Source of the DNA: an uncultured Pseudomonadales bacterium
GTDB taxonomy: Bacteria > Patescibacteriota > Microgenomatia > UBA1400 > Chazhemtobacteraceae
Assembly: GCA_964422035.1 (NCBI GenBank)
Contig: CAYQZQ010000001.1
Span: forward strand, 249,013-313,012
Length of the DNA stretch: 64,000 nt
Direction of reading: 5' to 3'
This document shows, piece by piece, positions 24,388 to 55,768 of the stretch. Position numbers and translations under genes: made by a program. Each line of letters begins with the position of its first letter. Position 1 is the stretch's first letter. Under the pieces are notes generated by a model. It did no database searches. It saw nothing but the letters and a program-made list of their open reading frames with translations, and was not told where the DNA came from.

Positions 24388-24459
24388 ATATGTATTTTAC
24401 ACATACTGTTAAATTTATCTGGCAGAAAAGGGGTTTGTAAATTACTATTTGTAACTGAT

Positions 24460-26352: not shown

Positions 26353-26404
26353 TGATCATGAATATATTAACAATCCTTGATTTTAAGGAAGATAATTAAC
26401 TGAT

Positions 26405-28282: not shown

Positions 28283-28382
28283 GCAATCTTTGATTATTTC
28301 TATAATTTAATTAAATCTATAGCGAAGTAAAAAGACACAGAGAGAGCTTTGGGCCTTTTTGGCAAACCGATGGGTAACTGAT

Positions 28383-30266: not shown

Positions 30267-30268
30267 AT

Positions 30269-32149
30269 ATGATTAACGCTATGACATTGATAAGTTACTG
30301 GGTAGTTCTGGGGATCATGGTGGGAGCACAACAACTTATGCCAGTAACTGTTTTTGCTTTCTTAAAGCCCTGGCAGGCTGAAATTTCCTTTAGAGCAGTG
30401 ATGGCATTTTCAATCTGGTTGATTTTTTTAGGCGGGGCATTAGTAGCACTACTTAGGGGGCTTATTAAAACTGTTAGCAGAAAACTTGAGTGGAACAGTA
30501 TTAGAAAAGCAAGTGATGAGTTGGGCTTTGGACTGGCTTTGAGTACAGCAGTGTTTTTGACAATGGGAGTGTTTCTCCTTTCAGTTGAAAAAATTCCGGT
30601 TTTGGAAAAGGAAAAACTTTTAGGAGCAGTGTTGATGAGCAGTTTAGTGTTAATTATTTTGACCACCTTTGTTTTTTACGGAGCATGGAAGTATTACGAG
30701 AAATGGATCGAAAAATATGCCAGGATAACTATCTTGGGCCTAGGTGGTTTAGTAGTTTTGCTAACCACTACTTTGTTTGGAGTTAAGCTTATTGGAGATC
30801 GATGGCCTATTAAGGCAGAAAAGTCAGATAAGCCCAGTGTTATCTGGGTAACAGTAGATGCCTTAAGACATGACAGATTCACATTAGAGTATATGCCACA
30901 AACTTATCAGTGGTTTGAGGAGGAGGGGTATATTTTTGAAAACGCCATGGCTCCTGCCCCCTGGACTGTCCCCTCTTTTGCATCCATGGTTACAGGCGAG
31001 TATCCATCTCAGATGCGAGCGGATCTGCCAATGAATGAACAGGAAAAGAATTTTGAGGTTTTGCCAGAAAAAATTACCATAGCAGAGGAATTTAAGGATC
31101 TGGGGTACAGTACAGCTGCGGTAGTAACCAACGGTTGGCTAAATGAGAGAAGAGGTTTTGATCAGGGGTTTGACTATTTTGTTAATCTGGAAGCGACAAA
31201 TGTCTACGACTGGGGGAAAGTCACTCATGATTCTGGGTTTTATAAATTAAGCGAGGCAATTGGCTGGGAAAATAAATTAAAAAACTGGTACCAGGGCCTG
31301 GTAAGAGTGAGAAGTACTGAATCGGCTTTTGAAATTGACGGTGAAGTGGTGGTGAATGAGGCGCTGAAGGTGAGAGAGCGCTTGCAGGAACCATACTTTT
31401 TATGGATTCACCTGATTGACCCGCACGGACCATACATTCCACCAATTGAGTTTTACCCCAACACAGCTGGTTACACAGGAGATGAGGTTTATAAAGCAGA
31501 ACACATGGTTGACCGGGAAGCCTCTGATAAGCTGCGTGAGCTTACGGTTACTTTTTATGATCAACTGGTCGCCTATACTGATCAACAGCTTTACAGACTG
31601 TTCTCAGAGCTGGAGAAGAGCGATGAGAGCATGGTGATAGTGTTTAACAGCGATCATGGAGAGCAGTTTTGGGAGAATGATGGGGAAATCGGACATGGTC
31701 ACAATTTGTATGCTGAAAATGTTCATGTACCAATGGCAATTGCCACAGATGGAGATTGGGAGTGGAAAGAAGAATCAGAGGACCTGGTGGACTTAAAAGA
31801 GATTAAAAACATCATGCTTTCTATTGCTGAAATTGAAGAGGTAGATTTTTTGGGAGAGGACAAGATGGTGTTTGTGGAGGGCAGAATTGAGGGACCAGGT
31901 CAGCAAGCAGTAATAAATCCTGACACCTGGAAGCTGATCACCAAAAAAGGAGCTGAAGAACTTTACATTTTGCTTTTCGATCCTAAAGAAATGATGAATC
32001 TACGAGCAGTTAGAAGGTATTTGGGCGGGAGACTAAGCGGTCAGATTGAAGACTGGCAGAGCGGTATGCAGCAGAAAAGAAAAGAATACGCCAGAAAGTT
32101 AGAACAAAGACATGGAGGAGAAAGCTTGCCAGATGTGGCAGGTTATTAG
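30269..32149 (+). CDS. Same family, paralog D (most divergent)
   Basis: VIWVTVDALRHDRF, APWTVPSFASMVTGEYP, YFLWIHLIDPHGPYIPP, FNSDHGEQ. Its start is 2 nt after the paralog C stop. The C-terminus ...SLPDVAGY matches the family tail. Confidence 0.7.
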   Translation: MINAMTLISYWVVLGIMVGAQQLMPVTVFAFLKPWQAEISFRAVMAFSIWLIFLGGALVALLRGLIKTVSRKLEWNSIRKASDELGFGLALSTAVFLTMGVFLLSVEKIPVLEKEKLLGAVLMSSLVLIILTTFVFYGAWKYYEKWIEKYARITILGLGGLVVLLTTTLFGVKLIGDRWPIKAEKSDKPSVIWVTVDALRHDRFTLEYMPQTYQWFEEEGYIFENAMAPAPWTVPSFASMVTGEYPSQMRADLPMNEQEKNFEVLPEKITIAEEFKDLGYSTAAVVTNGWLNERRGFDQGFDYFVNLEATNVYDWGKVTHDSGFYKLSEAIGWENKLKNWYQGLVRVRSTESAFEIDGEVVVNEALKVRERLQEPYFLWIHLIDPHGPYIPPIEFYPNTAGYTGDEVYKAEHMVDREASDKLRELTVTFYDQLVAYTDQQLYRLFSELEKSDESMVIVFNSDHGEQFWENDGEIGHGHNLYAENVHVPMAIATDGDWEWKEESEDLVDLKEIKNIMLSIAEIEEVDFLGEDKMVFVEGRIEGPGQQAVINPDTWKLITKKGAEELYILLFDPKEMMNLRAVRRYLGGRLSGQIEDWQSGMQQKRKEYARKLEQRHGGESLPDVAGY

Positions 32150-39133: not shown

Positions 39134-39637
39134 TCAAGGTTTCACGGTATGAGTTTCTTTAACTTCGGATGTAATTTTGTCTTGATCAATTCCAAGAAAA
39201 TAAAATTTGACATCAAAAGTGTTGTTGTGATGAGACATTGAAAGAGCATAGCAAATGATTTTCTTATTTTTAGATATTGAGATTTCGCTTTCTTTGTTTC
39301 TGAGAGGATCGTTGTGTACAGCTGATAAATACCAACAATATAACAACAACATTGCCCCTTTTTTAAGGTGTGAGTGAGTATTTTCTAGGAAACTAGCAAA
39401 ATCGCTGTTTGTTGCTTGATAACCTACTACATTAAACAGTGATATCGCTGCGTCAAACTTATTAGATAAAGTAAAATTTCTTACATCTAGTTGGTGTAGT
39501 TTTATTTTTAATTCTAGACTCTTTTTTTTATTTTTTTTAGCTATTTTGAGCATGGGTAGCAAGATATCAAGCCCCTCAATGCGATATCTTTGAGACAAGT
39601 AGATTTCATGACCGCATGTTTCACAACCCAAACTCAA
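39134..39637 (-). CDS. Class I SAM-methyltransferase-like remnant (N-terminally truncated; possible pseudogene)
   Basis: 167 aa starting at TTG. The upstream in-frame sequence reads stop-TECIIRLLGKFDISDNSSI before SLGCETCGHE, so only about 20 codons precede a degenerate motif I (LSLGCETCG vs the usual LDLGCGTG). Motif II-like FDAAISLFNVV is present. It is flanked by AT-rich non-coding DNA on both sides. Confidence 0.4.
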   Translation of the reverse strand: MSLGCETCGHEIYLSQRYRIEGLDILLPMLKIAKKNKKKSLELKIKLHQLDVRNFTLSNKFDAAISLFNVVGYQATNSDFASFLENTHSHLKKGAMLLLYCWYLSAVHNDPLRNKESEISISKNKKIICYALSMSHHNNTFDVKFYFLGIDQDKITSEVKETHTVKP

Positions 39638-39734: not shown

Positions 39735-40652
39735 TTGGAAGTAGTTATTGAAGTTATTAATTATCGCATAGTGTGTTACTATCACAATAATATCTTATTA
39801 CATTATATGAATAGATGCGACTTATGCAATTCGAGAGAGATACGTTTTTATAGTTATGGAAATCATTCTGGCAACTGGTTAAGTTTATTTTACCTAAAAC
39901 ATTTCTTGCTAAGATACGCCATGCCTTTATTTGTCGTGTCCAAGAACCTCTACAGACAACTAAAGAGCGTCAGCTTATTTACTCCTCTTGAAAATCTGGC
40001 TCGATGCGATAGTTGTGGTTATGGAAAATATCTTGCGGATATCTCTAATAAAGATTTAAATGATTACTACACTTACTTCTATTGGCAGAATAAGGATGAC
40101 GATTGTGATTTTGATCTTAATCCAAAAGCTTACAAACAATGGAGATATGTGTCAGACAAAATTAAAATTGGGTCAATTCGTAAAGCTCTTGAGATCGGGG
40201 CAGGATCAGCCGGTTTTTCTCGAGTATTGAAAGAACATATAGGTGAAAATGAGGTCAGAGTAGGAGTAATTGAACCAGCTGAGAAATATGAAAGAATGTA
40301 TAAAAAAGAAGGACTAAAAAAGGAGGCGGATTTTTTTCCTGTTATTCTAAGTCGGAAATATGATTATATTCACATGTCTCATTGGCTTGAGCATGCACTT
40401 GATTTAGGAAAAGTCATGAGTGCAATTGTTAATCTATTAGAAACCAACAGTCATGTGTATGTTGAAGTACCAAATTGCGGTAAAGATTACTTTGCATCAA
40501 ATAGTAGAGATTTGCCTCATATTCATTTTTTCAGTGATAAGTCCTTGAGGTTGTTGTTTTCAAAATGGGGTTTTAGTCCAATTGATGTGAGTACAAACGG
40601 TGACGATAATAAATGGTTGCGTGGAATTTTTAGATACAAAAACAATAATTAG
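39735..40652 (+). CDS. Class I SAM-dependent methyltransferase with N-terminal Cys4 zinc-ribbon (Methyltransf_13/14-like sugar methyltransferase candidate)
   Basis: CDLCNS...CDSCGY (two CxxC pairs), then ALEIGAGSAGFS (motif I), then the acidic motif VIEPAEKY. Confidence 0.6.
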   Translation: MEVVIEVINYRIVCYYHNNILLHYMNRCDLCNSREIRFYSYGNHSGNWLSLFYLKHFLLRYAMPLFVVSKNLYRQLKSVSLFTPLENLARCDSCGYGKYLADISNKDLNDYYTYFYWQNKDDDCDFDLNPKAYKQWRYVSDKIKIGSIRKALEIGAGSAGFSRVLKEHIGENEVRVGVIEPAEKYERMYKKEGLKKEADFFPVILSRKYDYIHMSHWLEHALDLGKVMSAIVNLLETNSHVYVEVPNCGKDYFASNSRDLPHIHFFSDKSLRLLFSKWGFSPIDVSTNGDDNKWLRGIFRYKNNN

Positions 40653-40859: not shown

Positions 40860-42452
40860 ATGAAAAAGGTTGTGATTATTTTGTTGTTTTTGTTATTTGT
40901 CTTGATATATCCTGTCACCCCTTTCGTAGAAGATCTTAGAACTTTTTTCTCCGCTGCCCATCAAGCTGAGTTAACAGGTTTGAGATTCCCAATTAATGTT
41001 TATAGAGCCTGGGAGCTGAAGCTCATTGGTAACAGAATTTTCATCTTTGCTTTGTATAAACTAGCTACAACAATGGTGGATTTTTCAAATAAATTGATGT
41101 TTGAGGTCATTGTACGAAGCATATATTGCTTGTTGTTTATTGGTGCAAGTTACTATTTTTCAAGAAGTTTGTTAAAGGGTAGAAAATTTAAGTACTTTTT
41201 CTTGATTGTTGCTATAGCATTTTTGGCAGCTGGAGGTAGGATGAATATTCAGAGTGAAGAAATTGCCTTGTTACTTGCGATTTTAGGGGGAAGTATGTCT
41301 TTATCTAGTACTAAACTAATAAGGTTTTTTTCTGGGGTTTTCTTCGCTTACAGTTTTACCCTAAAAGGAGTCAGTGGTGCGATAAGCGTACAGATGTTAC
41401 TGCTTTTAGCTCTGCTTGGTACAAATAAGAAGAAAGTTAAGGACGCAATCATAAGTAGTATATTTTTTGGGTTATTATTCTTAGCTGGATTTATATTTCT
41501 TTTTCCAAATGAAATTCAAGCTATGTATGAACTGGCTGTTTATAAGTCGCTAGCTTTCCAAGGGAGAAGTTGGTTTAAGTTTGGCTATATGATGATCGTT
41601 TCGTTCTTTATGTGGTCATGGCAGCACCCGTATCTGATGGTTGCGAGCCTACTGGGCACAGTACAGTTGGCGTACTGGTTACTTGAGTCTAAATGGATGA
41701 AGTTGCTTGAGATAGGACTATTGTGGCTGCCTGGAATTATGGCGATTGCATTGCAGGCTAGAAATTTTCCCTATGACGTCTATTTTCATATAATTCCGAT
41801 CAGCTATTTAGGTTACTACTGCATTAGAAAACTAATAACTAAAGGTGTGAACAGAAAAATGCTTATATCATTGATGGTAATTTTGGTAGGAGTTATGTTG
41901 TTAGCATTATTTTGGGGACAAACCTATTATAAGCTCTATTTTTACATGTTGGTCTGGTGGTTAATTGGGTTGAGTATTTTGCTATCTAAAAAGATTCGAT
42001 TAGGTCGCATTGTGATAATTATTTTATTTGGAGTACTACTTAGTTTTAGTTTCGGGTTTATGAATGACGAATATCGCTGGAAACATCTAGAGCAAAGAAC
42101 TACTCTGGAAAGTTTATTTGCCAATCTTGACAAGACTATAGAAAATGACCACAGCTCTATACTTTATCTGGCAAGTGGTGACGCATCATATTTTTTGGGC
42201 ATGAAATCTCATTGCGAACAAACTGAACCGCATGCTGTGCAAAGAGGAAGAGAATATTCTAAGAAAAGTTTACCTAATTTCCAGGAACAAATGAACTGTG
42301 TTCTTGGATATAAAGGCAAATATATACTAATGGATTCCTGGTTTAATATAAGCGACTTGGAGAAGGTAAGGAGCAAATTGCTTAATGAGTATGGATTGAT
42401 AACCTTAAAGTCCACCAAGTATCGTTCGATGAAGCTATATAAGAGGAAGTGA
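40860..42452 (+). CDS. Polytopic membrane protein (GT-C/polymerase-like candidate)
   Basis: 530 aa with about 12 TM and a C-terminal soluble segment. Confidence 0.45.
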   Translation: MKKVVIILLFLLFVLIYPVTPFVEDLRTFFSAAHQAELTGLRFPINVYRAWELKLIGNRIFIFALYKLATTMVDFSNKLMFEVIVRSIYCLLFIGASYYFSRSLLKGRKFKYFFLIVAIAFLAAGGRMNIQSEEIALLLAILGGSMSLSSTKLIRFFSGVFFAYSFTLKGVSGAISVQMLLLLALLGTNKKKVKDAIISSIFFGLLFLAGFIFLFPNEIQAMYELAVYKSLAFQGRSWFKFGYMMIVSFFMWSWQHPYLMVASLLGTVQLAYWLLESKWMKLLEIGLLWLPGIMAIALQARNFPYDVYFHIIPISYLGYYCIRKLITKGVNRKMLISLMVILVGVMLLALFWGQTYYKLYFYMLVWWLIGLSILLSKKIRLGRIVIIILFGVLLSFSFGFMNDEYRWKHLEQRTTLESLFANLDKTIENDHSSILYLASGDASYFLGMKSHCEQTEPHAVQRGREYSKKSLPNFQEQMNCVLGYKGKYILMDSWFNISDLEKVRSKLLNEYGLITLKSTKYRSMKLYKRK

Positions 42453-42463
42453 TGCTTTACATA

Positions 42464-43324
42464 TCAAGCGGTTTTGAGTTTTTTGCGCTGGGGTTTTTCA
42501 ACCGGTAGGATGTCTTGTGTTTTGTAGGTAAGAGCTTGGGAAACATGGTCTAAGTCTCTTACTAACTTTCGCATTCCCCCAGGCTCAAGCGAGGCAGCGT
42601 GGTCTGTGCCTTTCCAAGTTCGGTCTAAAGTGAAGTGTCTTTCTATGTATTCTGCTCCAAGAGTCATGGCAGCGATATCAGCTGCTATACCCAAATGGTG
42701 GCCCGAAAACCCAATGGTTTTGACTAAATGCCCGTATTGGCGCTTAAGATGTTTTATCTCTAGTAAAGAAAGAGATGAGAATGGAGCCGGATATGCAGAG
42801 GTGCAACTATACAGGATTGTACTTTTTAAACCATTATTACTTTTTAGGAACTTAATGATTAGGTCAATTTCTTCCTTGCTGGTCATTCCTAACGAGATGT
42901 GGATTTCTCCCGAGAAATTTTTCAAAATAAAAAAGAGTAATTCAAAATTAAGATTACAAGCTGATGGAATTTTAATCATGTTGGGGCTCATACTTATTAT
43001 CTCTCTTGCGGAAGTTAGGTCCCAAACCGAAGTAGAATATTCCATATCAAGTTTCTCACAATAATCTTTAAGTTGCTGATGTTCTTTTTTTGTAAACTCA
43101 AGAAACTCCCTATGTTGGCCATATGTTTCTCCATACGAATTGTAGGGCACAGGATGAGGGGAATTGTATTCTGCTTCAGATAGCAGCTCCTTAGGGTTTC
43201 TTTTTTGAAATTTGACGACATCCACATCACAAAAATCCTTGGCTATTCGAATCATTTTCTTGGCAATTTTAAAGTCTCCTTTATGATTACAACCTATTTC
43301 TGCTATGACTTTAGGTCTGTTCAT
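42464..43324 (-). CDS. neuB: NeuB-family nonulosonic acid (sialic/KDN-like) synthase, without C-terminal SAF domain
   Basis: VIAEIGCNHKGDFKIAKKMIRIAKDFCDVDVVKFQKR, then GFSGHHLGIAADIAAMTLGAEYIERHFTLDR..GTDHAASLEP. At 286 aa it is too short to include an antifreeze-like SAF domain. Confidence 0.75.
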   Translation of the reverse strand: MNRPKVIAEIGCNHKGDFKIAKKMIRIAKDFCDVDVVKFQKRNPKELLSEAEYNSPHPVPYNSYGETYGQHREFLEFTKKEHQQLKDYCEKLDMEYSTSVWDLTSAREIISMSPNMIKIPSACNLNFELLFFILKNFSGEIHISLGMTSKEEIDLIIKFLKSNNGLKSTILYSCTSAYPAPFSSLSLLEIKHLKRQYGHLVKTIGFSGHHLGIAADIAAMTLGAEYIERHFTLDRTWKGTDHAASLEPGGMRKLVRDLDHVSQALTYKTQDILPVEKPQRKKLKTA

Positions 43325-44453
43325 TGTTTTTTTGGAAAATTTCTAATATTTCTCTTATCACTCCATGCCCCCCCTTTGTGGATGTAATATAGTTAGTACT
43401 TGTTTTTACTTTGCGGTGGGCATCTAGTGGAGCAAATGAGTAACCAGACTTTTTAATTGCACCCAGATCGTTTAGGTCGTTTCCTATATAGCATATATTT
43501 TCCCAATTATAATTATGCTTCTTTAGGAAATTCTCAATTACAGCAACTTTGTTTGTAGCTTGATCAATAACCGGTATTTTTAATTTTTCAAGTCTTTTTT
43601 TAACTACAGGATTTTTTTCGCGAGAAACAACCGAAAAACCAATATTAAGCTGGGGTAACAATATATCCAGGCCTAAACTGTCAGTTTTGGAGGTAACAAT
43701 CGTTTCTTTGCCATCTTGAGATGTCAAAATTGTATTATCAGTAAAGACTCCATCAAAATTTGAGATTATATGCTTAATCTGATGAAGTTTTGAAAGCGGG
43801 TGTTTGTTTATTAACAATTTCTCGACAATTGTCCAGTCCTCAGGCTCATCAATTTCAGTTGCAGTATCATTACTCATCTTGTAGATTCCTATGTTTCCCC
43901 CTAGTCTGTTTTTGTAATTTTTAAGTATTTCATACTTGGTTATGTAAAATGCTCCATTTTCTAAAAACGAACCCTCAAAGTCTTGCCTTCTTGGTCTGTT
44001 GAATGGATCATAATTGAATGGCTTAAAGTTATGACTCCATACAAACCGTTTAAACTCAACAGCACTGAGTAATGAATCAAGATTGTTCTCATCAAAGGTT
44101 TTGAGTGCTTTGCTCAAGTCTTGTGAAGACAGAAGTGGTGATGTGGCTTGTATGGTAACTAGGACTTCAAAATCGACTTTTTCCTGAAAGTGGAGCATGA
44201 CAGACTCTGTTGATGCAGTATCTGTGGCAAACTCAGGAGGACGTTTAATTATCTTTGCACCATATTTACGGGATATCTCAGCTATTTTTTCACCGTCGGT
44301 AGACACCCAGACTTCATCAATTTGATCACACTGCTTGGCGGCTGTGATAACCCAATAACAAAGTGGCTTTCCAGCAATAGGTTTTATGTTTTTAAGCGGA
44401 ATTGATTTAGATCCTTTTCTAAGCGGTATTAGTGCGACAATCTTTTTTTTCAT
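43311..44453 (-). CDS. neuA: Acylneuraminate (nonulosonate) cytidylyltransferase NeuA fused to KdsC-like HAD phosphatase
   Basis: The N-terminus IVALIPLRKGSKSIPLKNIKPIAGKPLCYWVI...VWVSTDGEKIAEISRKYGAKII is the CMP-NeuAc synthetase signature. The C-terminus FDGVFTD...IGNDLNDLG...KGGHGVIRE is KdsC/YrbI HAD-IIIA-like. Confidence 0.75.
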   Translation of the reverse strand: MKKKIVALIPLRKGSKSIPLKNIKPIAGKPLCYWVITAAKQCDQIDEVWVSTDGEKIAEISRKYGAKIIKRPPEFATDTASTESVMLHFQEKVDFEVLVTIQATSPLLSSQDLSKALKTFDENNLDSLLSAVEFKRFVWSHNFKPFNYDPFNRPRRQDFEGSFLENGAFYITKYEILKNYKNRLGGNIGIYKMSNDTATEIDEPEDWTIVEKLLINKHPLSKLHQIKHIISNFDGVFTDNTILTSQDGKETIVTSKTDSLGLDILLPQLNIGFSVVSREKNPVVKKRLEKLKIPVIDQATNKVAVIENFLKKHNYNWENICYIGNDLNDLGAIKKSGYSFAPLDAHRKVKTSTNYITSTKGGHGVIREILEIFQKNNEQT

Positions 44454-44524
44454 AGTGGCTTATATTTTTCTGTATTATATAGCAAACTTTTGTATGAAAC
44501 AGAAAATATAGGTTGCTATTATCA

Positions 44525-45355
44525 TCAGATGATGTCTTGATAGTTTTTTTGAGGGAATGTTTCTAGCCAAGTATCATGAGATAGATTGATAATACGACTC
44601 GGATCTTTTGCTGCCCGATAATACTTATCATATTGCTCAAAAAGTTTTAAGTTATTCTTATGGAGCTTGATTATTGAATCCCACGCTTTATTTTTTGTGG
44701 AGTTCTGGCGGACGTCGTCTTTAGGGTCATAAAAGTTTTTAGCCGTTTTACCATAGTCTCTTAGGACTGTGTGATCACAACCTAATAGATAGATTGGGTT
44801 ATACCCCATGTATAAGAGTACCGGCAGCACCATAATGGGAACTGATTGGGGACTTAAGACTGGTTTTGTAATATCTGTATTAATTTTTAGTAACGAGGAT
44901 GTTATTAGATAGTATATTTCTCTATTGGGAAAAAGGTTGAATTTTTTAACTAAAGCTTGATCAGTATGACCTAGAAAGATGTTCGTTTGCGGCGGCAAGA
45001 TACCATCAGCTCTTTTCATCCACCTTACGAAGTTTTTTAATTTCAATGGGGAGTGAAAGGGAGCGAAAAAGTGGAATTTAGGTTTAATAATTTTAATATC
45101 CTTGTGAAGAAAAGCATTGCTGACAGAAAACACATCTTCGTTTTTTAGTTTTTTTAAGTTGTACTTTTTAATACTGGGACCTGTAGCCAGTAGAAAGGCT
45201 TGCTTGTTTTTACCCTTGCCTTTTAGTTTGGTGTTCTTAGCCGTAAGGTGTTGGTGTCTCAAATAAGAGTAGTTTTTAGCCAAGATAACCTTAAGAGGTG
45301 ATGGCAGAACTTGACTGAGTGCTGTAATCGATAGGGGTATTTTTTTATTTAACAT
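44525..45355 (-). CDS. DUF115/MptE-fold (Maf-like) protein; candidate nonulosonic-acid transferase
   Basis: LLATGPSIKKYNLKKLKNEDVFSVSNAF and LLGCDHT are reminiscent of the DUF115 GPSL...N and G.D motifs. It is adjacent to neuA/neuB. Confidence 0.35.
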   Translation of the reverse strand: MLNKKIPLSITALSQVLPSPLKVILAKNYSYLRHQHLTAKNTKLKGKGKNKQAFLLATGPSIKKYNLKKLKNEDVFSVSNAFLHKDIKIIKPKFHFFAPFHSPLKLKNFVRWMKRADGILPPQTNIFLGHTDQALVKKFNLFPNREIYYLITSSLLKINTDITKPVLSPQSVPIMVLPVLLYMGYNPIYLLGCDHTVLRDYGKTAKNFYDPKDDVRQNSTKNKAWDSIIKLHKNNLKLFEQYDKYYRAAKDPSRIINLSHDTWLETFPQKNYQDII

Positions 45356-45373
45356 TTCTTACTACTTTACATA

Positions 45374-46501
45374 TTAGAATATTTTTTTAGGTTTTGTTTT
45401 TAGATCGGTTATAAAGCATTCAGAAGGCAATTCTTGGGTAATACTATCATAGTATTCAACTATGCTTTTACTAAAAGGAAAAATTTTGTAGTAAAGATAT
45501 CCGTTGAGGGCAAAGTTTACTGCTGTACTTATTCCTGTGCTACTAATGCTAAAAACAGAGTGAATTGATTTAGCATTCTTAAGCAAGAAAACTTCTAGGT
45601 TGTCTTGTTTGCTTAAGATTTTAAACTTTTTGAGATCTATCATTTTGATTTCTTTGGTTTCTCGGGGGTGAGGTTTGTATAACAACTGGTAGTTCGGGTA
45701 ACTAGATCTAATATGGTTAAGGCACCGGTTCATACATTGAGCATATTTTTGGTGATCAAGATTATCAAAACATAAAAATATGGATCCTAGAAATAGAATG
45801 TGCTTTTTCTTCTGATCGGATTGGGAAAATACTCTAAAGGGGTAATGCATTTGGACAATGTTTTTTTGTTTTTTTTTGGTTTGTTTTGTAATTGGAACCA
45901 GATGAACTTGCTGATCATAAACTTTGACCGATCCTTCCCTATATTGCAATCTCAAAGCCCCATCTTCAGACTTAGTTTGATAACCAAATATCTGATTTTC
46001 CTTCTGAACGAGATAGTCGGTTTTGTGCATTTTGAACAAGGGGAAGATTAAGGAATTCGCAATTTTTCCTTCAATCTTGGGGACAAAATTGTGTTGATCA
46101 TATAGATAATTATCATATTGATATTTGGGAATTATCAATGTAGAGAGTGCTTGATCATAGTTAGAAATAAGGTAATTAGATATAAACTGGCAATCAGCAA
46201 AGCAGTAAATTTTATCCTTAGAAGTAATATTTATTTTTGAAATTGCATGCGCAGCCTTGAACAAACGATAGATTTGTATTGGAAAAAAAAATGAGTAATC
46301 CGGCCTTGATAGATATAGCACTTGAGAAAAGTATTTTTTGGGTAGCTTCTTATCTATGTATTGCCAATAATTATGTAGGGAGACTATGAGTATGGATTGA
46401 TTTTTAAGTATTTTTTTTGTTTTACGATACCCAATAGCTGCAATCAGCTGCTTGGGATGATCTACGCTGAATACATGCTTTATGTCTTTTGAGTGGCCCA
46501 T
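45374..46501 (-). CDS. Hypothetical protein, possible GT-B-like transferase
   Basis: 375 aa. The C-terminal half HILFLGS...LLYKPHPRE...SVFSISSTGIS resembles Rossmann-type sugar or phosphate transferase cores. No confident family call. Confidence 0.3.
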   Translation of the reverse strand: MGHSKDIKHVFSVDHPKQLIAAIGYRKTKKILKNQSILIVSLHNYWQYIDKKLPKKYFSQVLYLSRPDYSFFFPIQIYRLFKAAHAISKINITSKDKIYCFADCQFISNYLISNYDQALSTLIIPKYQYDNYLYDQHNFVPKIEGKIANSLIFPLFKMHKTDYLVQKENQIFGYQTKSEDGALRLQYREGSVKVYDQQVHLVPITKQTKKKQKNIVQMHYPFRVFSQSDQKKKHILFLGSIFLCFDNLDHQKYAQCMNRCLNHIRSSYPNYQLLYKPHPRETKEIKMIDLKKFKILSKQDNLEVFLLKNAKSIHSVFSISSTGISTAVNFALNGYLYYKIFPFSKSIVEYYDSITQELPSECFITDLKTKPKKIF

Positions 46502-46528: not shown

Positions 46529-47803
46529 TTACTTAGGTGAGTTCTTACATCTAGGATTAATCTTTTTTGTCTTCCATTCTGGTAGAAAGGCCAGTTCATT
46601 ATTGTGATGTCTTGGAATTTTATTTACTGGAGCAACCTTGGATTTTTGGTCTAGGAAAGATATATGAATTCCGTCTTGCTGGTCGATTACCTGCCCTCTT
46701 CTTTCCAGCTTGACTAATAACTCATAATCATTGCTGTTAAAGCTGATCTCTCCTTGAGGGTGATATGTCAAGGTTGAGGTATATTTGCCCTCACTTCTGG
46801 TCTTTGGTTTGTTGAAGTGGGTTTCCGAGGTGGCAAATAGTTCTCTACCTGTTGGAGTTCTGAAAATAATTTTTAATTCAGCAGAAGGGGTGTCGTGATT
46901 TAGTTGATAGTTGATTTTGATTCTGAAAGGTTGAGATACATCAAAAATAGAGCTTTGCTTGTCGTTTGTATAAAGAGTGATTTGGTTGATTTGCCCTTCT
47001 TTTTTATCTAGTTTGGGAAAGATATATTGCGATTTTTGTTTTTGGGTTGTGCTTAAATATTGCTCTACCACTTCGTTAGTGAGACCAAGGTTTTTGACCT
47101 TTCCGTTTTCTATGTGCAAAGTTTTTTGACAGATGTTTTGGATAGCGGTCATATCGTGGCTGACTAATATTAGTGTTTGTCCTTGGTTGGCAACGTTACT
47201 CATTTTTTTGAGACTTTTTCTTTGGAAGTCTGCGTCACCGACTGATAGAACCTCGTCTACTAGAAGGATCTCCGGTTGGAGATGAGCCGCCACGGAAAAG
47301 GCAAGTCTGAGGCGCATGCCGGAGGAATAGTGCTTGATTGGTGTGTCGATGAATTCTTCTACCTCTGCAAATTTAATTATTTTTTCAAGTTTGTCTTCTA
47401 CCTCACTTCTGGTCATACCAAGGATAACTCCGCTTAAAAAAATGTTTTCTTTACCGGTAAGCTCTTGGTGAAAACCGGTACCCACTTCTAGCAGGCTACC
47501 CACTCTGCCTCTAAGAATGGCCTCTCCAGAGGTGGGAGTAGTGATTCGACTGAGAACTTTTAAGAGAGTGCTTTTACCAGCTCCATTTTTGCCGATGATA
47601 CCTAGAACCTCCCCTTTTTGCACTGAAAATGAGATGTTTTTTAAGGCCCAAAATTCATTTTTTTGAAGATTATCTAATGGTTTGATGTTTTGGGTTGGGT
47701 TTTTGAGGATACCTGAGATTGTATCTCTGAGGGAGTAGTAAAGTTGCTTTTCACCTTTACGGTATTTTTTGGAGATATTTTTGACTTCGATTATTGGTTT
47801 CAT
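46529..47803 (-). CDS. wzt: ABC transporter ATP-binding protein, Wzt/TagH-like, with about 170-aa C-terminal beta-rich extension (carbohydrate-binding-domain candidate)
   Basis: Walker A GKNGAGKST, signature LSGGMRLRLAF and Walker B LLVDEVLSVGD. It extends about 170 aa beyond the nucleotide-binding domain. Confidence 0.8.
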   Translation of the reverse strand: MKPIIEVKNISKKYRKGEKQLYYSLRDTISGILKNPTQNIKPLDNLQKNEFWALKNISFSVQKGEVLGIIGKNGAGKSTLLKVLSRITTPTSGEAILRGRVGSLLEVGTGFHQELTGKENIFLSGVILGMTRSEVEDKLEKIIKFAEVEEFIDTPIKHYSSGMRLRLAFSVAAHLQPEILLVDEVLSVGDADFQRKSLKKMSNVANQGQTLILVSHDMTAIQNICQKTLHIENGKVKNLGLTNEVVEQYLSTTQKQKSQYIFPKLDKKEGQINQITLYTNDKQSSIFDVSQPFRIKINYQLNHDTPSAELKIIFRTPTGRELFATSETHFNKPKTRSEGKYTSTLTYHPQGEISFNSNDYELLVKLERRGQVIDQQDGIHISFLDQKSKVAPVNKIPRHHNNELAFLPEWKTKKINPRCKNSPK

Positions 47804-48633
47804 GTTATGTCAGCAAAGAATTTTTCAGTGAGATTAAAGTAGACAAGTCCAAGGATAAGTGCTAATACAGCGGCTACAGATGATATTGCCAAATTGAAAG
47901 TATTTAGAGAAGATGAAAATGCAAGACTGCTTCTAACCGCCTCAATAACTCCTGTCATGGGGTTGAGAGCTAGTATGAATTGATTTGATTCCCGAACTAT
48001 GGAGGTGGGATAAATGACAGGCGCAACAAAAATCAGAAGCTGGATAAAGAAGGGTAGGATATAGCGCACATCGCGATATTTGACATTAATAGAGGCAAGC
48101 AGAGTTCCCAGCCCGGAGGCAGCAATGAAGGTAATTAAGAAGCCCAAGGGGACTATCCATAACGAAGAAAGAGTTGGAGGGTGAGAGAAATACAAAGAAG
48201 CTAGAAGTAAAAGAGCTAGATTAATAACAAAGTCTATTGAGCTGGTGATGACTGATGATAGGGGTAAAATAAGGCGAGGAAAATATACTTTTTTAATTAG
48301 GTGTTCGTTGGATATAAATGAGTTGGCAGCATTGGTGAGCGATTGAGAAAAAAAGTTCCAGAAAACTAAACCGGTGAGGACAAAAAGAGGATAGGGCAGA
48401 TCTCCTGATGGTACTTTGGCTAGTTTGCCGAAAAAAACGGTAAAGATAAAGGTACTCATAAGTGGCTGGAGAATGACCCAAAGGATGCCTAGGACAGTTT
48501 GTTTGTAACGAACTTTGATATTACGCCAAGCAAAGATAATTAAGAGTTCTCGATAGCGATATAGTTCTTTGAGATCTGGTAAGAAAGAACTACCTTTGGG
48601 TTTGATAGTGATAGTGTGAGGATTTTTACTCAT
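47800..48633 (-). CDS. wzm: ABC-2 type polysaccharide export permease (Wzm/TagG-like)
   Basis: 6-TM ABC-2 permease pattern. The track start is at 48690, but the likely start is MSKNPHT at 48633, whose ATG overlaps the upstream methyltransferase TGA as ATGA. Confidence 0.75.
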   Translation of the reverse strand: MSKNPHTITIKPKGSSFLPDLKELYRYRELLIIFAWRNIKVRYKQTVLGILWVILQPLMSTFIFTVFFGKLAKVPSGDLPYPLFVLTGLVFWNFFSQSLTNAANSFISNEHLIKKVYFPRLILPLSSVITSSIDFVINLALLLLASLYFSHPPTLSSLWIVPLGFLITFIAASGLGTLLASINVKYRDVRYILPFFIQLLIFVAPVIYPTSIVRESNQFILALNPMTGVIEAVRSSLAFSSSLNTFNLAISSVAAVLALILGLVYFNLTEKFFADIT

Positions 48634-49346
48634 ATGTTTTCTTTTTTGATTGCAACCATGATTATATTGGATGCAAGCAGTTGTGGCCAAAGTTGTCTGA
48701 TATTAAACAATAAGCCTGACTGGGTTTTTTTGATGATTTGAAAGTTGTGCTGCCTTAAAAGATCGGTTAGAGATCTGTGAGTAAAGTAGTGAAGATGACC
48801 GATGTCATAGTCACTCTGTCCTGAGCCAGTGCGCGGCAGTTTACCCAATAAGATACTAAGGCGGCGAGGTAAAAATGCGAGATTGGGAACCTCAATTATC
48901 AACTGGCCACCTAGTTTAAGTATACGATGGACTTCTTTGAGAACAAAATTGACATCAAAGACGTGTTCTAAAACTGCTACCATGGTGATGGTGCCAAAAT
49001 AGTTGCTTTGATAGTCGGTTTTGTTGTCAATATTGTGGACTGATAGTGTAGTATCGAGTTTTTCTGAGTTTAGGTTTTTGTTGGCTTGCTTAACAAGATC
49101 TTTTGAGATATCAAGCCCATGTAACTGACTGAAGCCTTTATCGCTGGCTTTGATGAGAAGATTGCCTGCGCCTGTTCCAATATCAAGAATATTTCCGCCT
49201 GGTTTTAGGAGATTGACAACGGCATCGGTGCGGTGGAGTTCATAGTTGATTAGAGAGTAGTGGATTCTTTCAAGTAAGGTGAGGTCTTTGCTGTTCTTGT
49301 TGAGTCTTTTTTGGTAGAAATGAGTGGCAGTGTTGTTATTTGGCAT
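48630..49346 (-). CDS. Class I SAM-dependent methyltransferase
   Basis: ILDIGTGAGNLLIKASDKGFSQLHGLDIS (motif I plus the post-I acidic residue). Confidence 0.75.
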   Translation of the reverse strand: MPNNNTATHFYQKRLNKNSKDLTLLERIHYSLINYELHRTDAVVNLLKPGGNILDIGTGAGNLLIKASDKGFSQLHGLDISKDLVKQANKNLNSEKLDTTLSVHNIDNKTDYQSNYFGTITMVAVLEHVFDVNFVLKEVHRILKLGGQLIIEVPNLAFLPRRLSILLGKLPRTGSGQSDYDIGHLHYFTHRSLTDLLRQHNFQIIKKTQSGLLFNIRQLWPQLLASNIIMVAIKKENI

Positions 49347-51583: not shown

Positions 51584-52969
51584 TTATTCTATCACTGAGG
51601 CTTTTAATTTATTGTTTGCGTCTAAGACAGTTATTAGAACTGAAGTTCCAGGGTCACGAGGAAAATCTGTCGCGGGGTACTTGTGTTGGAGATAGTCCCA
51701 CCAAATGGCGATGTTACCTTTAATTTCTTCTTTGTATCGAGGTGAAGGAGGTTGTTGAAAAGAGATGTTATACCGGCTAGGGAAAGATGGGTGAAGTTGT
51801 TTAATAAATGATTGATGATTGGTAAAGAGGTGTGGGTGAGCGTAGTTAGGATTGATGGTCCTGATGGCGTGCGTAACAAGGAACGGATTAATGTGTCCGG
51901 AGCCCGAAAGAAGAGAGATAGTAAATGGAATAAAAGAAAGAAGGGCTAGTCGCTTCAATTTGGTAGTCTTCTTGAAATACAAAATGAATATATCTAAGAA
52001 ATAGTAAAGGTAGAGTGCAAAAATAGGTAGATAGTAAACATATTGACGAGGAGTAAAAAAAAATGATTGAGAACGGGTAACTAAGAATGAAACCGGGCCC
52101 AGAATAATCCAGCCTAAAGAGGTTAGAGTAGCCTTGAAGCTGGCTTTGCGAGAGTTGAGATAATGATAGAGACTTAAGACTGAACCAGTAATAATTAGAG
52201 GGATAAAGTTTCGGTAGTATTCCCAAAACAATGAGAAAGATGTATCAAAGTTCCAAGAATGAACATGGCGAGCATAAAAAACGGACACCAAAGAAGCAAT
52301 TAAGACACTGATTATAGGCTTACTTACCCTGAACTCTGAATGAAATATAAGTTGAGAAAATAGAAGTGTAGATAACAGGGTGGCAAACTGAAAAATACTG
52401 GCCGTAGAGGTTGCGGCCAGAGCCAAAAGGGTAATCGTAAAAAGGATTAATGGTTTATTGTTGAGCTCAATAACGTAAAGCAGTAAGAACGAAAGAGAGA
52501 TCCATAAGCTGTATGGTCGCATCTGACTGGCATATTGAACCATAGCAGGATTAAAGAGAAATAAGGGCAGGCTGAGGGTGAAAAACAAGAAGTATTTAAG
52601 TTTTTTGTAGAGATAGATTAGATAGGTAATGATTCCAATCGTAAAGTGAGTTGCTAAGAGATAGTAAAGACGAAAGTACTGATGGGGTGCGAGAAACAAA
52701 TATTTTAGTGGTTTACGTATTAAGTAGAAAATCCGAAGGATAAAGTAATCAAGAGGGGCCGGGCTACCTTGATAAGCAACTCCTAACAAGATCGATTTTA
52801 AACTAGAAGTAGATATAGTTCTATTGAAACTCGCTAATTCATCTATCCAAAACAATTTTTGATTGGCAAGCTCAAACCAATTGAGAGAGAAGAGTGTAAG
52901 TTGGGCAAAAATCAGCAAAAGACAAAATAGATAGAGGGTTTTTTTATTTTTTAGGTTCATTACCAGCAA
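51584..52969 (-). CDS. GT-C fold glycosyltransferase candidate (DE first-loop motif)
   Basis: LFWIDELASFNRT follows TM1. About 12 TM helices. Confidence 0.5.
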   Translation of the reverse strand: MLVMNLKNKKTLYLFCLLLIFAQLTLFSLNWFELANQKLFWIDELASFNRTISTSSLKSILLGVAYQGSPAPLDYFILRIFYLIRKPLKYLFLAPHQYFRLYYLLATHFTIGIITYLIYLYKKLKYFLFFTLSLPLFLFNPAMVQYASQMRPYSLWISLSFLLLYVIELNNKPLILFTITLLALAATSTASIFQFATLLSTLLFSQLIFHSEFRVSKPIISVLIASLVSVFYARHVHSWNFDTSFSLFWEYYRNFIPLIITGSVLSLYHYLNSRKASFKATLTSLGWIILGPVSFLVTRSQSFFFTPRQYVYYLPIFALYLYYFLDIFILYFKKTTKLKRLALLSFIPFTISLLSGSGHINPFLVTHAIRTINPNYAHPHLFTNHQSFIKQLHPSFPSRYNISFQQPPSPRYKEEIKGNIAIWWDYLQHKYPATDFPRDPGTSVLITVLDANNKLKASVIE

Positions 52970-54356
52970 TTATATAGACTGATTGACCAAAGGGCGGTTT
53001 TATGCTCTTTTCAACCAATTTCATTAGAGGAACAATCATTTGGTCAAAGATAGAAATCTGACCTGAGAGTGTTTGACTCGATGGAGTTGTGCACAAAAGC
53101 TTGTTTAGGTACCAACCAAAGGCACCGATGATATTGAAGTACTTTGATTTGATAATTTTGAAATCATTTTTTTTGAGCAGCTGAGAAAGTGAGTGATGGT
53201 TGTATCTTCTGTAATGACTGACGCTTTTATCCCATCGGCTGTAAAGGCGTTGGTGAGCAGGAACAAAGATAAATATTTTACCCCGTGATTTTAGGATTTT
53301 TTTAATATTTTGAATCATCTGCTCTTGGTTTTTTACATGCTCAAGAGTATTGATAAGAACTACTAAGTCATATTTGCGTGGCAATTCTTTTGCCTGATCG
53401 ACTTGTGATAGATCAAGAATCCATGGCTCGACATTGCGATGTGACTTGAATTTATTTTTTAACTGCTGATGATATTGCTCATCTACTTCTAGGATGTCTA
53501 AGTGTTGTGCGCGGGGAGCAATCAAAGAAGAAAAAGTGCCTATTCCCCCGCCAATTTCAAGGACATTCCCCTTAATGTAGTGACAGAATTGACTAAATAT
53601 CCAGTTGTTATAGTTCTCGGCTTGGGAAACTTTGTGTAAACCGGTAACTAGCTGGTTGGGTGGAAAAAACTTATACTTTAAAAGGGTTTGGATGGCTACT
53701 AAGCCGTCTTTCCAATTGATCTTTTTGCCCTGTTTAACACTTCGCGGTTGGTAGCTGATAGGAAGCTCAATTATCTTTTCACCTCTTAGACCAAGTTTGG
53801 CTGTTACTTCGGGGCAAAACTCAAATCCAGTACACTCAAGATTTAGATTTTTTAGAAGATCAGTTTTTATGAGCTTGTAGCAGGTCGGCTCGTCGGTTAT
53901 TTCAAGACCAAAGAGAAGATTAGCCAGTTGGGTGACAAATTTGCCCCCAAGATAGAAGAAGCGACTTGAATAAATTCCCCTTTGAGCATATTTAAAGCGA
54001 GAACCGTAGACGACATTGGTTTTATCTTTTAAGACTGGGTAGATCAGAACTTCAAGATCCTTGGGGTTGTATTCCAAATCTGCATCCTGAATAACTGTAA
54101 AACTTCCGGTGGCTTCTTCTAGACCTGTTCGAATAGCACTACCTTTTCCTTTATTTATGTCATGGAATTTCTTTATGAGTGGTTTTGTAGTCTTAACTTT
54201 TTTGATTATTTGAGTCGAACCATCAGTTGAACCATCATCCACCATAATAATTTGCACATCGAGATCTATGGAGTCAACTTTAGAGACAAGTTCTTTGATG
54301 GTGTTTTTCTCATTATACACAGGGATTATAACAGATAGTATGGGAGGTTGATTCAC
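52944..54356 (-). CDS. Bifunctional GT2 glycosyltransferase (N-terminal) and class I SAM methyltransferase (C-terminal)
   Basis: N-terminal LSVIIPVYNEKNTIKELVSKV...IMVDDGSTDGS...DADL. C-terminal VLEIGGGIGTFSSLIAPRAQHLDILEVD. Confidence 0.75.
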   Translation of the reverse strand: MNQPPILSVIIPVYNEKNTIKELVSKVDSIDLDVQIIMVDDGSTDGSTQIIKKVKTTKPLIKKFHDINKGKGSAIRTGLEEATGSFTVIQDADLEYNPKDLEVLIYPVLKDKTNVVYGSRFKYAQRGIYSSRFFYLGGKFVTQLANLLFGLEITDEPTCYKLIKTDLLKNLNLECTGFEFCPEVTAKLGLRGEKIIELPISYQPRSVKQGKKINWKDGLVAIQTLLKYKFFPPNQLVTGLHKVSQAENYNNWIFSQFCHYIKGNVLEIGGGIGTFSSLIAPRAQHLDILEVDEQYHQQLKNKFKSHRNVEPWILDLSQVDQAKELPRKYDLVVLINTLEHVKNQEQMIQNIKKILKSRGKIFIFVPAHQRLYSRWDKSVSHYRRYNHHSLSQLLKKNDFKIIKSKYFNIIGAFGWYLNKLLCTTPSSQTLSGQISIFDQMIVPLMKLVEKSIKPPFGQSVYIIAGNEPKK

Positions 54357-54433: not shown

Positions 54434-55768
54434 CTATGAAAGCTTGTTAGAATTGATCAATTGATGACGCTTAATATTGTAGGTTATTTTTTTCCAAAGA
54501 GTGCGTAACTTTTGGAAGATTTTACCCACAACATCAGGTCTAACTTTGGAGACAAGATGTCTGGCTGGTTTGGTGCCCAAGAGCAGAAATAAGCTGCTGA
54601 TAACAATCTCCATAAGATAACGAGAGAAAGGGAAGCCTTTGATTTGATAGCCATAATCTGGAACAGGGAAGCCTAATTTTTTAAGAAACTGGATACGAAT
54701 AAAAGCTCCACGTTTTTTTAAATCATAACCATGTGAGTGCATCTTGATGGCTTTGTCTTTTGAGATATTTTTTAAGCTGATAACACCTTGGTGCTGCATC
54801 TTTTCAAGAATATTTTGGCCCTTTTGAGACCTGACTATGACCATGGAAAAACCCTTACCTTTTTGTTCATATTTGGGAGCCCATGCATCACCGACTGAGA
54901 TGTCAGTAAACTCATTAGTCAGATCAGTAGAAAGAAGGCTACGTTTGACAATGTGAAATGGAATCAGGTAGTTAGCATAGAACTTAGGTAGTTTAATGAC
55001 TTCTCCCGATTGGAGGACGATTTTGGTGTATCCAGGCCACTTTCCTTCTCGGAAAGACAGACTTTTTATTTTTTTATGATCATCGATACCATAGGACTTA
55101 AGTAGGTATTTGATTGAACTGAAGTGCAAGGTATTGCCGTAGAAGGGACCAATTATGTATTTGATTTTTTTAACGACCTCATCATTGACCATTTGCAATT
55201 TGCGAATTGAATGGACTTGAGGAGGAATACCAACAAGGGCGAGGTTTTCCTGAGAATCAGTTACATGAGAGAGGGCCTGATTATTGGAGCTTAATAGATA
55301 TTTACTACCAGCCGCAGAGATGATTTGCTCGGGGGTGGTAGCAATAAAAGGTCTGGTAAGCCATGGTTTCTTTTCATCCATGCCTAAAACCACTGCTCCA
55401 GAGATTTTTTTGTTTTGCAAAAGCCAAAGGAGAACCTGGGTAATGATTCCTCCGCTACTAGCCAGTCGTCTAATTTTTTGGTTGGTGGTAAAACCTATGT
55501 GTAGTGACCGGTAATGCCCCAGATACTGATCTCTTTTTGGAGAATTGTAAACAAATTGATTTAAACGCGGAAAGTTAACATTTTGAGCTGGACAGCCAGT
55601 CCAGATTCTTTTTGCCAGGTCGTCTTCTAAATCGATTGGTATCTTGGGTAGATAATTACCCTCCTTATCTTTAAATTTAATTTTCCCCTGAGAGAGCCCT
55701 ATGCAAGTACCACAACGGTTACATAAACCGTTTTTGGTAACGTCAATGAGTTTATTTTTTGCAGACAT
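54434..55768 (-). CDS. FrhB/FdhB-like protein (coenzyme F420 hydrogenase beta-subunit family) with N-terminal Cys cluster
   Basis: CNRCGTCIGL...WTGCPAQN (four Cys, consistent with a 4Fe-4S site), followed by a long FrhB_C-like region. This family recurs in polysaccharide loci next to pyruvyl/acyl-modifying enzymes. Confidence 0.45.
   Translation of the reverse strand: MSAKNKLIDVTKNGLCNRCGTCIGLSQGKIKFKDKEGNYLPKIPIDLEDDLAKRIWTGCPAQNVNFPRLNQFVYNSPKRDQYLGHYRSLHIGFTTNQKIRRLASSGGIITQVLLWLLQNKKISGAVVLGMDEKKPWLTRPFIATTPEQIISAAGSKYLLSSNNQALSHVTDSQENLALVGIPPQVHSIRKLQMVNDEVVKKIKYIIGPFYGNTLHFSSIKYLLKSYGIDDHKKIKSLSFREGKWPGYTKIVLQSGEVIKLPKFYANYLIPFHIVKRSLLSTDLTNEFTDISVGDAWAPKYEQKGKGFSMVIVRSQKGQNILEKMQHQGVISLKNISKDKAIKMHSHGYDLKKRGAFIRIQFLKKLGFPVPDYGYQIKGFPFSRYLMEIVISSLFLLLGTKPARHLVSKVRPDVVGKIFQKLRTLWKKITYNIKRHQLINSNKLS

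Follow-up and report, generated by a model that had tools for sequence, protein, structure and literature searches.

The minus-strand genes between positions 46501 and 42464 of a 64,000-nt stretch of contig CAYQZQ010000001.1 (assembly GCA_964422035.1; hereafter the window, to whose positions all coordinates refer) probably form a module that makes and transfers the cytidine monophosphate (CMP)-activated form of the sialic-acid-like sugar 3-deoxy-D-glycero-D-galacto-nonulosonate (KDN). The module would be of the type found in Bacteroides thetaiotaomicron and Prymnesium parvum, with KDN-9-phosphate (KDN-9-P) as its intermediate, and we put the probability of this reading at about 0.75. It comprises a gene for a NeuB-family synthase without a SAF domain (neuB), a gene in which a cytidylyltransferase (NeuA) is fused to a KdsC-type HAD domain (neuA-HAD), a DUF115 gene and a gene for a 375-aa protein. 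The predicted genes of the cluster all lie on the minus strand, in the order Wzm, Wzt, 375-aa protein, DUF115, neuA-HAD and neuB (Table 1). Wzt, the 375-aa gene, the DUF115 gene and neuA-HAD are separated by 27, 18 and 71 nt, respectively, and neuA-HAD and neuB overlap by 14 nt. The initial annotation of this DNA had placed three open reading frames (ORFs) here, for the DUF115 protein, the fusion and the synthase. They were found at those coordinates on the minus strand, and the five motifs that it had read in them (IAEIGCNH, ERHFTLDR, GTDH, FDGVFTD and GNDLND) are all present in the translations. Its description of a SAF-less NeuB homologue of 286 aa and of a NeuA fused to a KdsC-like phosphatase domain also agrees with the domain searches given below.

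The synthase matched PF03102 (NeuB) over residues 24-268 with 223.8 bits, and the Pfam scan gave no match to a SAF domain in its 286 residues. A distance of 11 nt separates its stop codon from that of a convergent gene, which leaves no place for a detached SAF coding region. Its 120 closest relatives measure 282-316 aa and share 64-68% identity with it, and the short synthase is therefore a family trait and not a truncation. More than 8000 proteins matched at E < 1e-10; the best 120 relatives include proteins of Flavobacteriia, Paenibacillus, Bacteroidales and Candidatus Buchananbacteria, and the database name of the relatives is 'N-acetylneuraminate synthase'. That environmental bacteria have NeuB proteins without SAF, which form a distinct group, is already on record (PMC8208679).

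To compare the synthase with a characterised enzyme, the sequence of the P. parvum Kdn-9-P synthetase was taken as the translated coding sequence from the supplement of Wagstaff et al. 2018 (PMC6200933). This protein of 312 aa, likewise without SAF, aligned with the window synthase from end to end (55% identity, 329 bits, E 6e-118). It converts mannose-6-phosphate (Man-6-P) and phosphoenolpyruvate (PEP) to Kdn-9-P, with 0% conversion of N-acetylmannosamine-6-phosphate (ManNAc-6-P), mannose or N-acetylmannosamine (PMC6200933). Among solved structures, the best match of the synthase was 6ncs, a 290-aa 'sialic acid synthetase' (87 bits), followed by Neisseria meningitidis NeuB (76 bits), PseI (64 bits) and SpsE (60 bits). 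Grouping with the non-phosphorylating NeuB enzymes, which the initial annotation had named as the outcome that would speak against its proposal, was not seen in these scores. The synthase also stayed below the cut-offs of NeuB_NnaB (TIGR03569; 192.9 bits, cut-off 399.65) and PseI (TIGR03586; 132.7 bits, cut-off 340.25).

Alignment with N. meningitidis NeuB showed that the residues of the IAEIGxNH, KxQ, ERHFT and G-x-D motifs are retained in the synthase. E134 of the N. meningitidis enzyme is catalytic, and changes at this position have been linked to the use of phosphorylated substrates (PMC8208679). The aligned position (residue 123) is Cys in the window synthase, as in 107 of 119 family members, where it sits in an almost invariant K-I-P-S-A-C-N motif, and Ser in the P. 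parvum enzyme. These comparisons support the prediction of a KDN-9-P synthase that belongs to the SAF-less clade of the P. parvum Kdn-9-P synthetase/BT1714 type, and the condensation of Man-6-P with PEP is predicted because of the 55% identity to an enzyme that has been shown to perform it. The SAF-less synthases also share an invariant insert, Y-x-x-P-H-P...S-Y-G-x-T-Y-G-x-H-R-E-F-L-E-F (residues 53-77), which is not found in classical NeuB.

In the fusion protein, residues 6-206 matched CTP_transf_3 (PF02348) with 102.7 bits. The best solved-structure match of this domain was 9t4z (PpNeuA; E 4.6e-53), followed by mouse CMAS (E 6.6e-39) and bacterial NeuA proteins (1e-21 to 1e-26). The aligned residues of 9t4z are identical to those of the P. 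parvum CMP-Kdn synthetase translated from the supplement of the paper, to which the domain is 46.6% identical over 219 aa. The algal enzyme does not make CMP-Neu5Ac (Neu5Ac, N-acetylneuraminic acid; PMC6200933). Because of this identity to a KDN-specific synthetase, the N-terminal domain is predicted to be a CMP-KDN synthetase. Stand-alone NeuA genes without a HAD domain, 57-60% identical to the NeuA domain of the window, were found in four other loci (at about 10001..10650 in L033, L034 and L053 and at 6825..7469 in L036). The sole NeuB-like match in L034, L036 and L053 is 29-33% identical to the window synthase, and L033 has none, indicating that the cytidylyltransferase domain alone is no predictor of the route.

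The best NCBIfam scores of the C-terminal domain were with the BT1713-type KDN-9-P phosphatase model NF058599 (95.8 bits, cut-off 180) and the KdsC subfamily model (93.5 bits, cut-off 106.95). Full-length alignments were obtained with 3mmz (E 1.7e-22), BT1713 (3e81; E 4.2e-18) and the C-domain of mouse CMAS (3ewi; E 1.4e-17). The HAD subfamily, which the initial annotation had proposed to check, is thus that of the KdsC and KDN-9-P phosphatases and not of unrelated phosphatases, at scores below the curated cut-offs. When the window protein was aligned with 119 fusion homologues of full length, conservation reached at least 90% in 20 columns of the HAD part, of which the window protein matched 19. 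E279, R287 and K290 align with E56, R64 and K67 of BT1713 and are 99-100% conserved in the 119 fusions. We take these three BT1713 residues to be determinants of specificity for KDN-9-P, a role that earlier work reportedly assigned to them. KdsC has Arg at the position of E56, and PDB entry 4hgq is an E56A variant. K302, D326 and D329 are also among the retained columns, and the motif II position is S277 in the window domain and T54 in BT1713.

The sole deviating conserved column is that of the motif I nucleophile, where the window protein has N232-F-D234 instead of DxD. The residue that precedes FDGVFTD is the HAD nucleophile position, and the Asn found there had gone unremarked in the initial annotation. 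All 119 database homologues have Asp as the nucleophile, and so has BT1713. Of the 72 loci from genomes and metagenomes in which a KdsC-like domain occurs, only the window's own contig has Asn; 70 have Asp, and in the remaining locus, L019, the nucleophile motif pattern had no match. N232 is therefore a singleton, seen in no other of about 190 homologues. The C-domain of mouse CMAS likewise has Asn at the nucleophile position (NIDGCLTNG). The NCBI and Logan assemblies, which may share reads, encode an identical fusion protein. The ratio of HAD identity to NeuA identity was 0.63 for the window protein versus 0.77 (standard deviation 0.16) in other pairs; it lies inside the spread, and relaxed constraint on the HAD domain is thus not clearly indicated. 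No second KdsC-like sequence was found in the 64-kb window.

Asn232 probably disables the built-in phosphatase. By its fold and specificity residues the domain is of the KdsC/BT1713 type, and because the catalytic Asp is missing we do not count it among the active KDN-9-P phosphatases; it may keep only a role in ligand binding or oligomerisation, as in vertebrate CMAS. Of the 9-phosphate route of the KDN or Neu5Ac-9-P type that had been suggested in the initial annotation, the route itself is supported and can be narrowed to KDN, and the phosphatase step has become doubtful with the finding of Asn at the nucleophile position.

The DUF115 protein scored 29.5 bits against PF01973 (MptE-like/DUF115; E 7.7e-7), below the gathering score of 34.6. 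When it was aligned with six homologues adjoining neuA genes, all seven of the aligned family members matched PF01973, the best with E 4.4e-15, and the DUF115/Maf-like motifs noted in the initial annotation are borne out at the level of the family. A link to family GT42 was added: the family profile matched Campylobacter jejuni CstI and CstII with E values of 1.8e-4 to 1e-3, over about 150 residues that cover the GxGPS (GNGPS) and IYLxGxD motifs. Members of the family were found in 25 of 83 other cassette loci, about 15 of them directly after neuA-HAD. The profile match suggests that the DUF115 protein is remotely related to the GT42 sialyltransferases, and it is a candidate CMP-KDN-dependent transferase.

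Pfam assigns the 375-aa protein to no family, and an E limit of 5 gave no match either; its family profile had no match in the PDB even at E up to 10. A word-indexed search gave one homologue, and a search among 1.84 billion representatives gave 232 clusters. An AlphaFold2 model built from a 39-sequence alignment (pLDDT 93.9, pTM 0.91; a model from a 2-sequence alignment with pLDDT 38.8 was discarded) showed a GT-B fold of two Rossmann domains. The top Foldseek match of this model was the Mannheimia polysialyltransferase 5wcn (E 1.4e-10, TM 0.55), and further matches included the Neisseria lipooligosaccharide sialyltransferase NST (2yk5) and Photobacterium GT80 sialyltransferases. UDP-N-acetylglucosamine (UDP-GlcNAc) 2-epimerases ranked lower (E ~4e-6, TM 0.44-0.48).

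In the family of the 375-aa protein, H278-P279, E303 and S321 vary little or not at all, and an HP motif is characteristic of bacterial sialyltransferases (PMC5420450). The protein also matched, weakly, NF046086, the model of the Tannerella forsythia BFO_1060/Tanf_01245 family (E 1.1e-5; 24.7 bits, cut-off 200). Knock-outs of BFO_1060 and Tanf_01245 showed that these genes are needed for the addition of pseudaminic or legionaminic acid derivatives to the T. forsythia O-glycan (PMC5420450). The family of the 375-aa protein was not found in the other 80-odd cassette loci. The modelled fold makes the 375-aa protein a second candidate KDN transferase or polymerase. In many relatives of about 400 aa (e.g. 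P0262, P0278 and P0279), query residues ~212-370 are matched in two separate stretches, the best of which lies at the N-terminus of the relative, and this suggests that part of the family has a duplicated nucleotide-binding half. As far as we are aware, bacterial KDN transferases have been described rarely, if at all.

Domain content, homology, synteny, N232 and the fold of the 375-aa protein would fit the following chemistry and acceptor. The SAF-less synthase would condense Man-6-P and PEP to KDN-9-P. Dephosphorylation of KDN-9-P, which is the job of the fused KdsC-type domain in relatives, would here probably be slow or carried out by another phosphatase because the nucleophile is Asn, the fused domain apparently having kept every substrate- and metal-binding residue and lost the nucleophile. 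The N-terminal cytidylyltransferase domain would then convert KDN and cytidine triphosphate to CMP-KDN, from which the DUF115 (GT42-like) protein, the GT-B 375-aa protein or both would add KDN to a lipid-linked glycan or polymerise it there. Finally, the Wzm/Wzt ATP-binding cassette (ABC) transporter would export the KDN-carrying glycan. Polysialic acid capsules likewise leave the cell through ABC transporters, which gives one precedent. A KDN cap and a KDN-containing polymer are both plausible, and another precedent is given by the KDN-galactose teichulosonic acids in Streptomyces walls (PMC11481543).

The initial annotation had proposed a ManC homologue (5244..6365) as the precursor supply of this pathway. 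This candidate was rejected: the gene is 37 kb away, its match to the bifunctional model is confined to the guanylyltransferase portion, and it has no phosphomannose isomerase (PMI) domain. Its product would be GDP-mannose, which is not a KDN precursor.

The same cassette occurs well outside the window. More than 6800 relatives of the fusion were found at E < 1e-10, among them proteins of Methanosarcina, Clostridium, Nitrospirota, Bacillus, Bacteroidota, Spirochaetota and Paceibacterota. The direct neighbour of the fusion gene is, in about 60 of 80 loci from many phyla, a SAF-less neuB whose product shares 55-64% identity with that of the window, so that the pairing represents a widespread cassette and is not peculiar to the window. 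Among the nearest relatives (53-55% identity), loci L082 and L083 have neuA-HAD, neuB, an MptE-like gene and an unannotated gene, and in L084 the order is neuB, SIS-domain gene, neuA-HAD, Wzm and Wzt with a Wzt_C domain. The SIS-domain gene of L084 (7432-7998, plus strand), with the SAF-less neuB on one side and neuA-HAD on the other, is of the sugar-phosphate isomerase type; its product may provide the sugar-phosphate substrate or isomerise it.

The pathway type is already known, and the SAF-less synthase and the fusion are both common, although the initial annotation had presented them as unusual. Literature searches for a characterised bacterial NeuA-phosphatase fusion turned up nothing useful. 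What is added here is Asn232, the recurrent DUF115 partner and the small sialyltransferase-like family without a Pfam model.

Several points weigh against the assignment to KDN. The chemistry of the module in this organism is a prediction from sequence. The characterised synthase used for comparison was the P. parvum enzyme, and BT1714 and BT1715 were likened by their described activities only. Genes for Man-6-P supply (PMI, hexokinase) were not seen in the window. The gene-content searches covered 64 kb of a 725-kb contig. Two candidate transferases are present, and either, both or neither of them may use CMP-KDN. With a HAD score of 95.8 against a cut-off of 180 and the catalytic Asp missing, one cannot count on a dedicated dephosphorylation step. 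Neu5Ac-9-P is a substrate of BT1713 too, though a poorer one than KDN-9-P, and the fusion architecture mirrors vertebrate CMAS. Human NANS, from the wider 9-phosphate group, accepts ManNAc-6-P as well as Man-6-P (Km table, PMC6200933), so that homology alone is also compatible with a Neu5Ac-9-P route. It is nevertheless distinctly unlikely that the same module follows the animal route to Neu5Ac, via ManNAc-6-P and Neu5Ac-9-P: among characterised enzymes, the synthase and the cytidylyltransferase that come closest are each strictly specific for KDN (PMC6200933), and the P. parvum enzymes (55% and 47% identity) are far closer than any Neu5Ac enzyme with a solved structure. Moreover, a scan of every window ORF with 150 aa or more found no Epimerase_2/NeuC, DegT aminotransferase, PseB/LegB-type dehydratase, other gene of the PseB/PseC or LegB/LegC type or ManNAc kinase. 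The absence of a UDP-GlcNAc 2-epimerase and a ManNAc kinase from these ORFs counts against Neu5Ac; the epimerase, an aminotransferase and PseB/PseC were among the genes that the initial annotation had suggested searching for.

That no aminotransferase or dehydratase was found in the window also argues against a classical, non-phosphorylated route to Neu5Ac, legionaminic or pseudaminic acid, in which the HAD domain would be incidental and the 375-aa protein a divergent NeuC-type UDP-GlcNAc 2-epimerase. We consider this barely credible, although the database name of the synthase relatives is in its favour and such epimerases do occur among the fold matches. Sialyltransferases outrank them there, the invariant HP motif is present in the 375-aa protein, and Epimerase_2 gave no match to it at E up to 5. 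The synthase, in turn, misses the NeuB_NnaB and PseI cut-offs, has low identity to the NeuB and PseI structures and lacks the SAF domain, the source of the essential Arg314 of NeuB (PMC8208679). A different view of N232 is that it is the first sign of pseudogenisation in a decaying or non-functional module, or a sequencing or consensus error in the gene of a normal phosphatase. Its singleton status, the single G-to-A change that it requires and a nearest fusion relative just 55% identical, which makes fixation in the lineage uncheckable, would all fit. Four intact ORFs of family-typical length, the retention of 19 of the 20 conserved HAD columns, the unexceptional HAD/NeuA identity ratio and the identity of the protein in two assemblies, possibly built from shared reads, do not fit well, and decay or error seems unlikely to us. 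We therefore retain the CMP-KDN module as the preferred reading. An extension of it, that the HAD domain is a pseudo-phosphatase through a CMAS-like Asp-to-Asn change and, jointly, that the 375-aa protein is the founding member of a hitherto undescribed GT-B family, whose members transfer KDN or polymerise it to poly-KDN, is tentative and, taken as a whole, rather doubtful. If the former were true, the domain would be a bacterial snapshot of the vertebrate C-domain in the course of losing catalysis while keeping a structural or ligand-binding role. If the latter were true, the new family together with DUF115 and Wzm/Wzt would point to a KDN-containing surface polymer, teichulosonic-acid-like or KDN-capped, in a small-genome uncultivated bacterium.

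Table 1. Features of the predicted CMP-KDN module and the adjoining export genes (positions in the window)
Feature	Position	Strand	Remarks
SAF-less NeuB-family synthase, predicted KDN-9-phosphate synthase	42464..43324	-	286 aa, PF03102
Fusion of CMP-nonulosonate (KDN) synthetase and KdsC-type HAD, predicted	43311..44453	-	380 aa
Cytidylyltransferase (NeuA) domain	43812..44444	-	aa 4-214 of fusion
KdsC/KDN-9-P-phosphatase-like HAD (type C0) domain	43329..43784	-	aa 224-375 of fusion
Codon AAT (Asn232), HAD motif I nucleophile position	43758..43760	-	DNA read directly
DUF115/MptE-like (Maf-type) protein, candidate CMP-KDN-dependent glycosyltransferase	44525..45355	-	276 aa
GT-B, sialyltransferase-like protein, second candidate KDN transferase/polymerase	45374..46501	-	375 aa, no Pfam family
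Wzt-type ABC transporter ATPase with Wzt_C	46529..47803	-	PF00005 83.2 bits, PF14524 31.4 bits
Wzm-type ABC-2 permease	47800..48690	-	PF01061 70.2 bits

The module lies in a large glycan island that spans about 4.5-63.6 kb of the window. The island contains about 17 glycosyltransferases, several methyltransferases, an initiating phosphotransferase, a Wzx-type flippase, a Wzy_C protein and PMT_2-like membrane proteins in addition to the Wzm/Wzt ABC exporter. The GC content of the contig is 34-42%, and a promoter and terminator scan gave no more sites than shuffled sequence. Convergent with neuB is the gene of a 530-aa predicted polytopic membrane protein (40860..42452, plus strand) without a Pfam or NCBIfam match. 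A 305-aa methyltransferase (39735..40652, plus strand) stands back to back with the ORF of a 167-aa methyltransferase (39134..39637, minus strand) that starts with TTG; the Pfam match of the latter begins at model position 3-4, and the protein may be N-terminally truncated.

In the middle of the island, a tandem array of four paralogous LtaS-like Sulfatase-family genes was found (24361..32149, plus strand; 663, 625, 635 and 626 aa), in each of which the Sulfatase-family domain is preceded by a long N-terminal region. One ORF of 470 aa (52944..54356, minus strand) combines a GT2 glycosyltransferase (residues 8-168) with a class I methyltransferase (residues 262-403). A protein with the N- and C-terminal domains of FrhB/FdhB (coenzyme F420 hydrogenase beta-like; 54434..55768, minus strand) is encoded amid glycosyltransferases and methyltransferases. 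A 658-aa DUF4012 protein (2568..4544, minus strand) adjoins a 216-aa polyprenyl glycosylphosphotransferase, whose match is confined to the C-terminal catalytic part of the WbaP/WcaJ models. Together with the contig size of 725 kb, the GC content and the nearest named relatives, the DUF4012 protein hints at a CPR/Patescibacteria-like source with a small genome.

Genes of this cassette carry the names 'N-acetylneuraminate synthase' and 'acylneuraminate cytidylyltransferase' in the databases, and their most likely product is KDN made via the 9-phosphate. As the same cassette is present in thousands of bacterial and archaeal genomes, KDN may be a commoner prokaryotic surface sugar than the sparse literature suggests. 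The DUF115 neighbour and the sialyltransferase-like family provide concrete candidates for KDN transferases. The N232 variant represents a natural experiment on the need for the fused phosphatase, a question that is shared by vertebrate CMAS and phosphatase-less algae. For the present genome, the prediction is a KDN-bearing, ABC-exported glycan on a probably ultra-small uncultivated bacterium.

Each part of the module has counterparts in known systems. The DUF115 family profile resembles GT42 CstI and CstII over about 150 residues, the sequence relation being remote (E ~1e-4), and unlike Maf proteins the window protein has no flagellin context, its neighbours being polysaccharide export genes. 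The 375-aa protein shares the GT-B fold, the HP motif and the subsequent Glu and Ser-Ser-Thr with GT38 (5wcn), GT52 (2yk5) and GT80 (2zwi, 4r83) enzymes, but is only 10-16% identical to these structures and has no Pfam match; to the T. forsythia BFO_1060/Tanf_01245 transferases it is linked by the weak model match.

In B. thetaiotaomicron, the KDN pathway consists of the KDN-9-P synthase BT1714, the KDN-9-P phosphatase BT1713 and the CMP-KDN synthetase BT1715, according to Wang et al. 2008 as cited in PMC6200933. The same three activities appear to be encoded side by side in the window, with a phosphorylated intermediate. The HAD domain aligns with BT1713 over its full length and keeps the counterparts of E56, R64, K67 and K80 and the motif IV aspartates, whereas it differs in forming the C-terminal part of a fusion with the cytidylyltransferase and in having Asn in place of the nucleophile Asp. 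Motif IV reads GND in the window, 3mmz and the nearest fusions and GDD in BT1713. P. parvum has a SAF-less synthase and a cytidylyltransferase similar to those of the window and may likewise lack a working dedicated KDN-9-P phosphatase, of which no homologue was found in the alga. The algal cytidylyltransferase, however, carries a C-terminal transmembrane anchor instead of a HAD domain, and the window genes are bacterial and clustered with candidate transferases and an ABC exporter.

The fusion itself resembles vertebrate CMAS (1qwj, 3ewi), with which it shares the order of the two domains, Asn at the nucleophile position (NIDG in CMAS, NFDG in the window) and a GN-x motif IV. The C-domain of mouse CMAS is described as having no phosphatase activity and serving as a tetramerisation platform (Oschlies et al. 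2009, as cited in PMC8636478). The vertebrate domain is more degenerate (GNEVSD, and SERACSKQ around motif II), whereas the window HAD domain keeps all other conserved residues.

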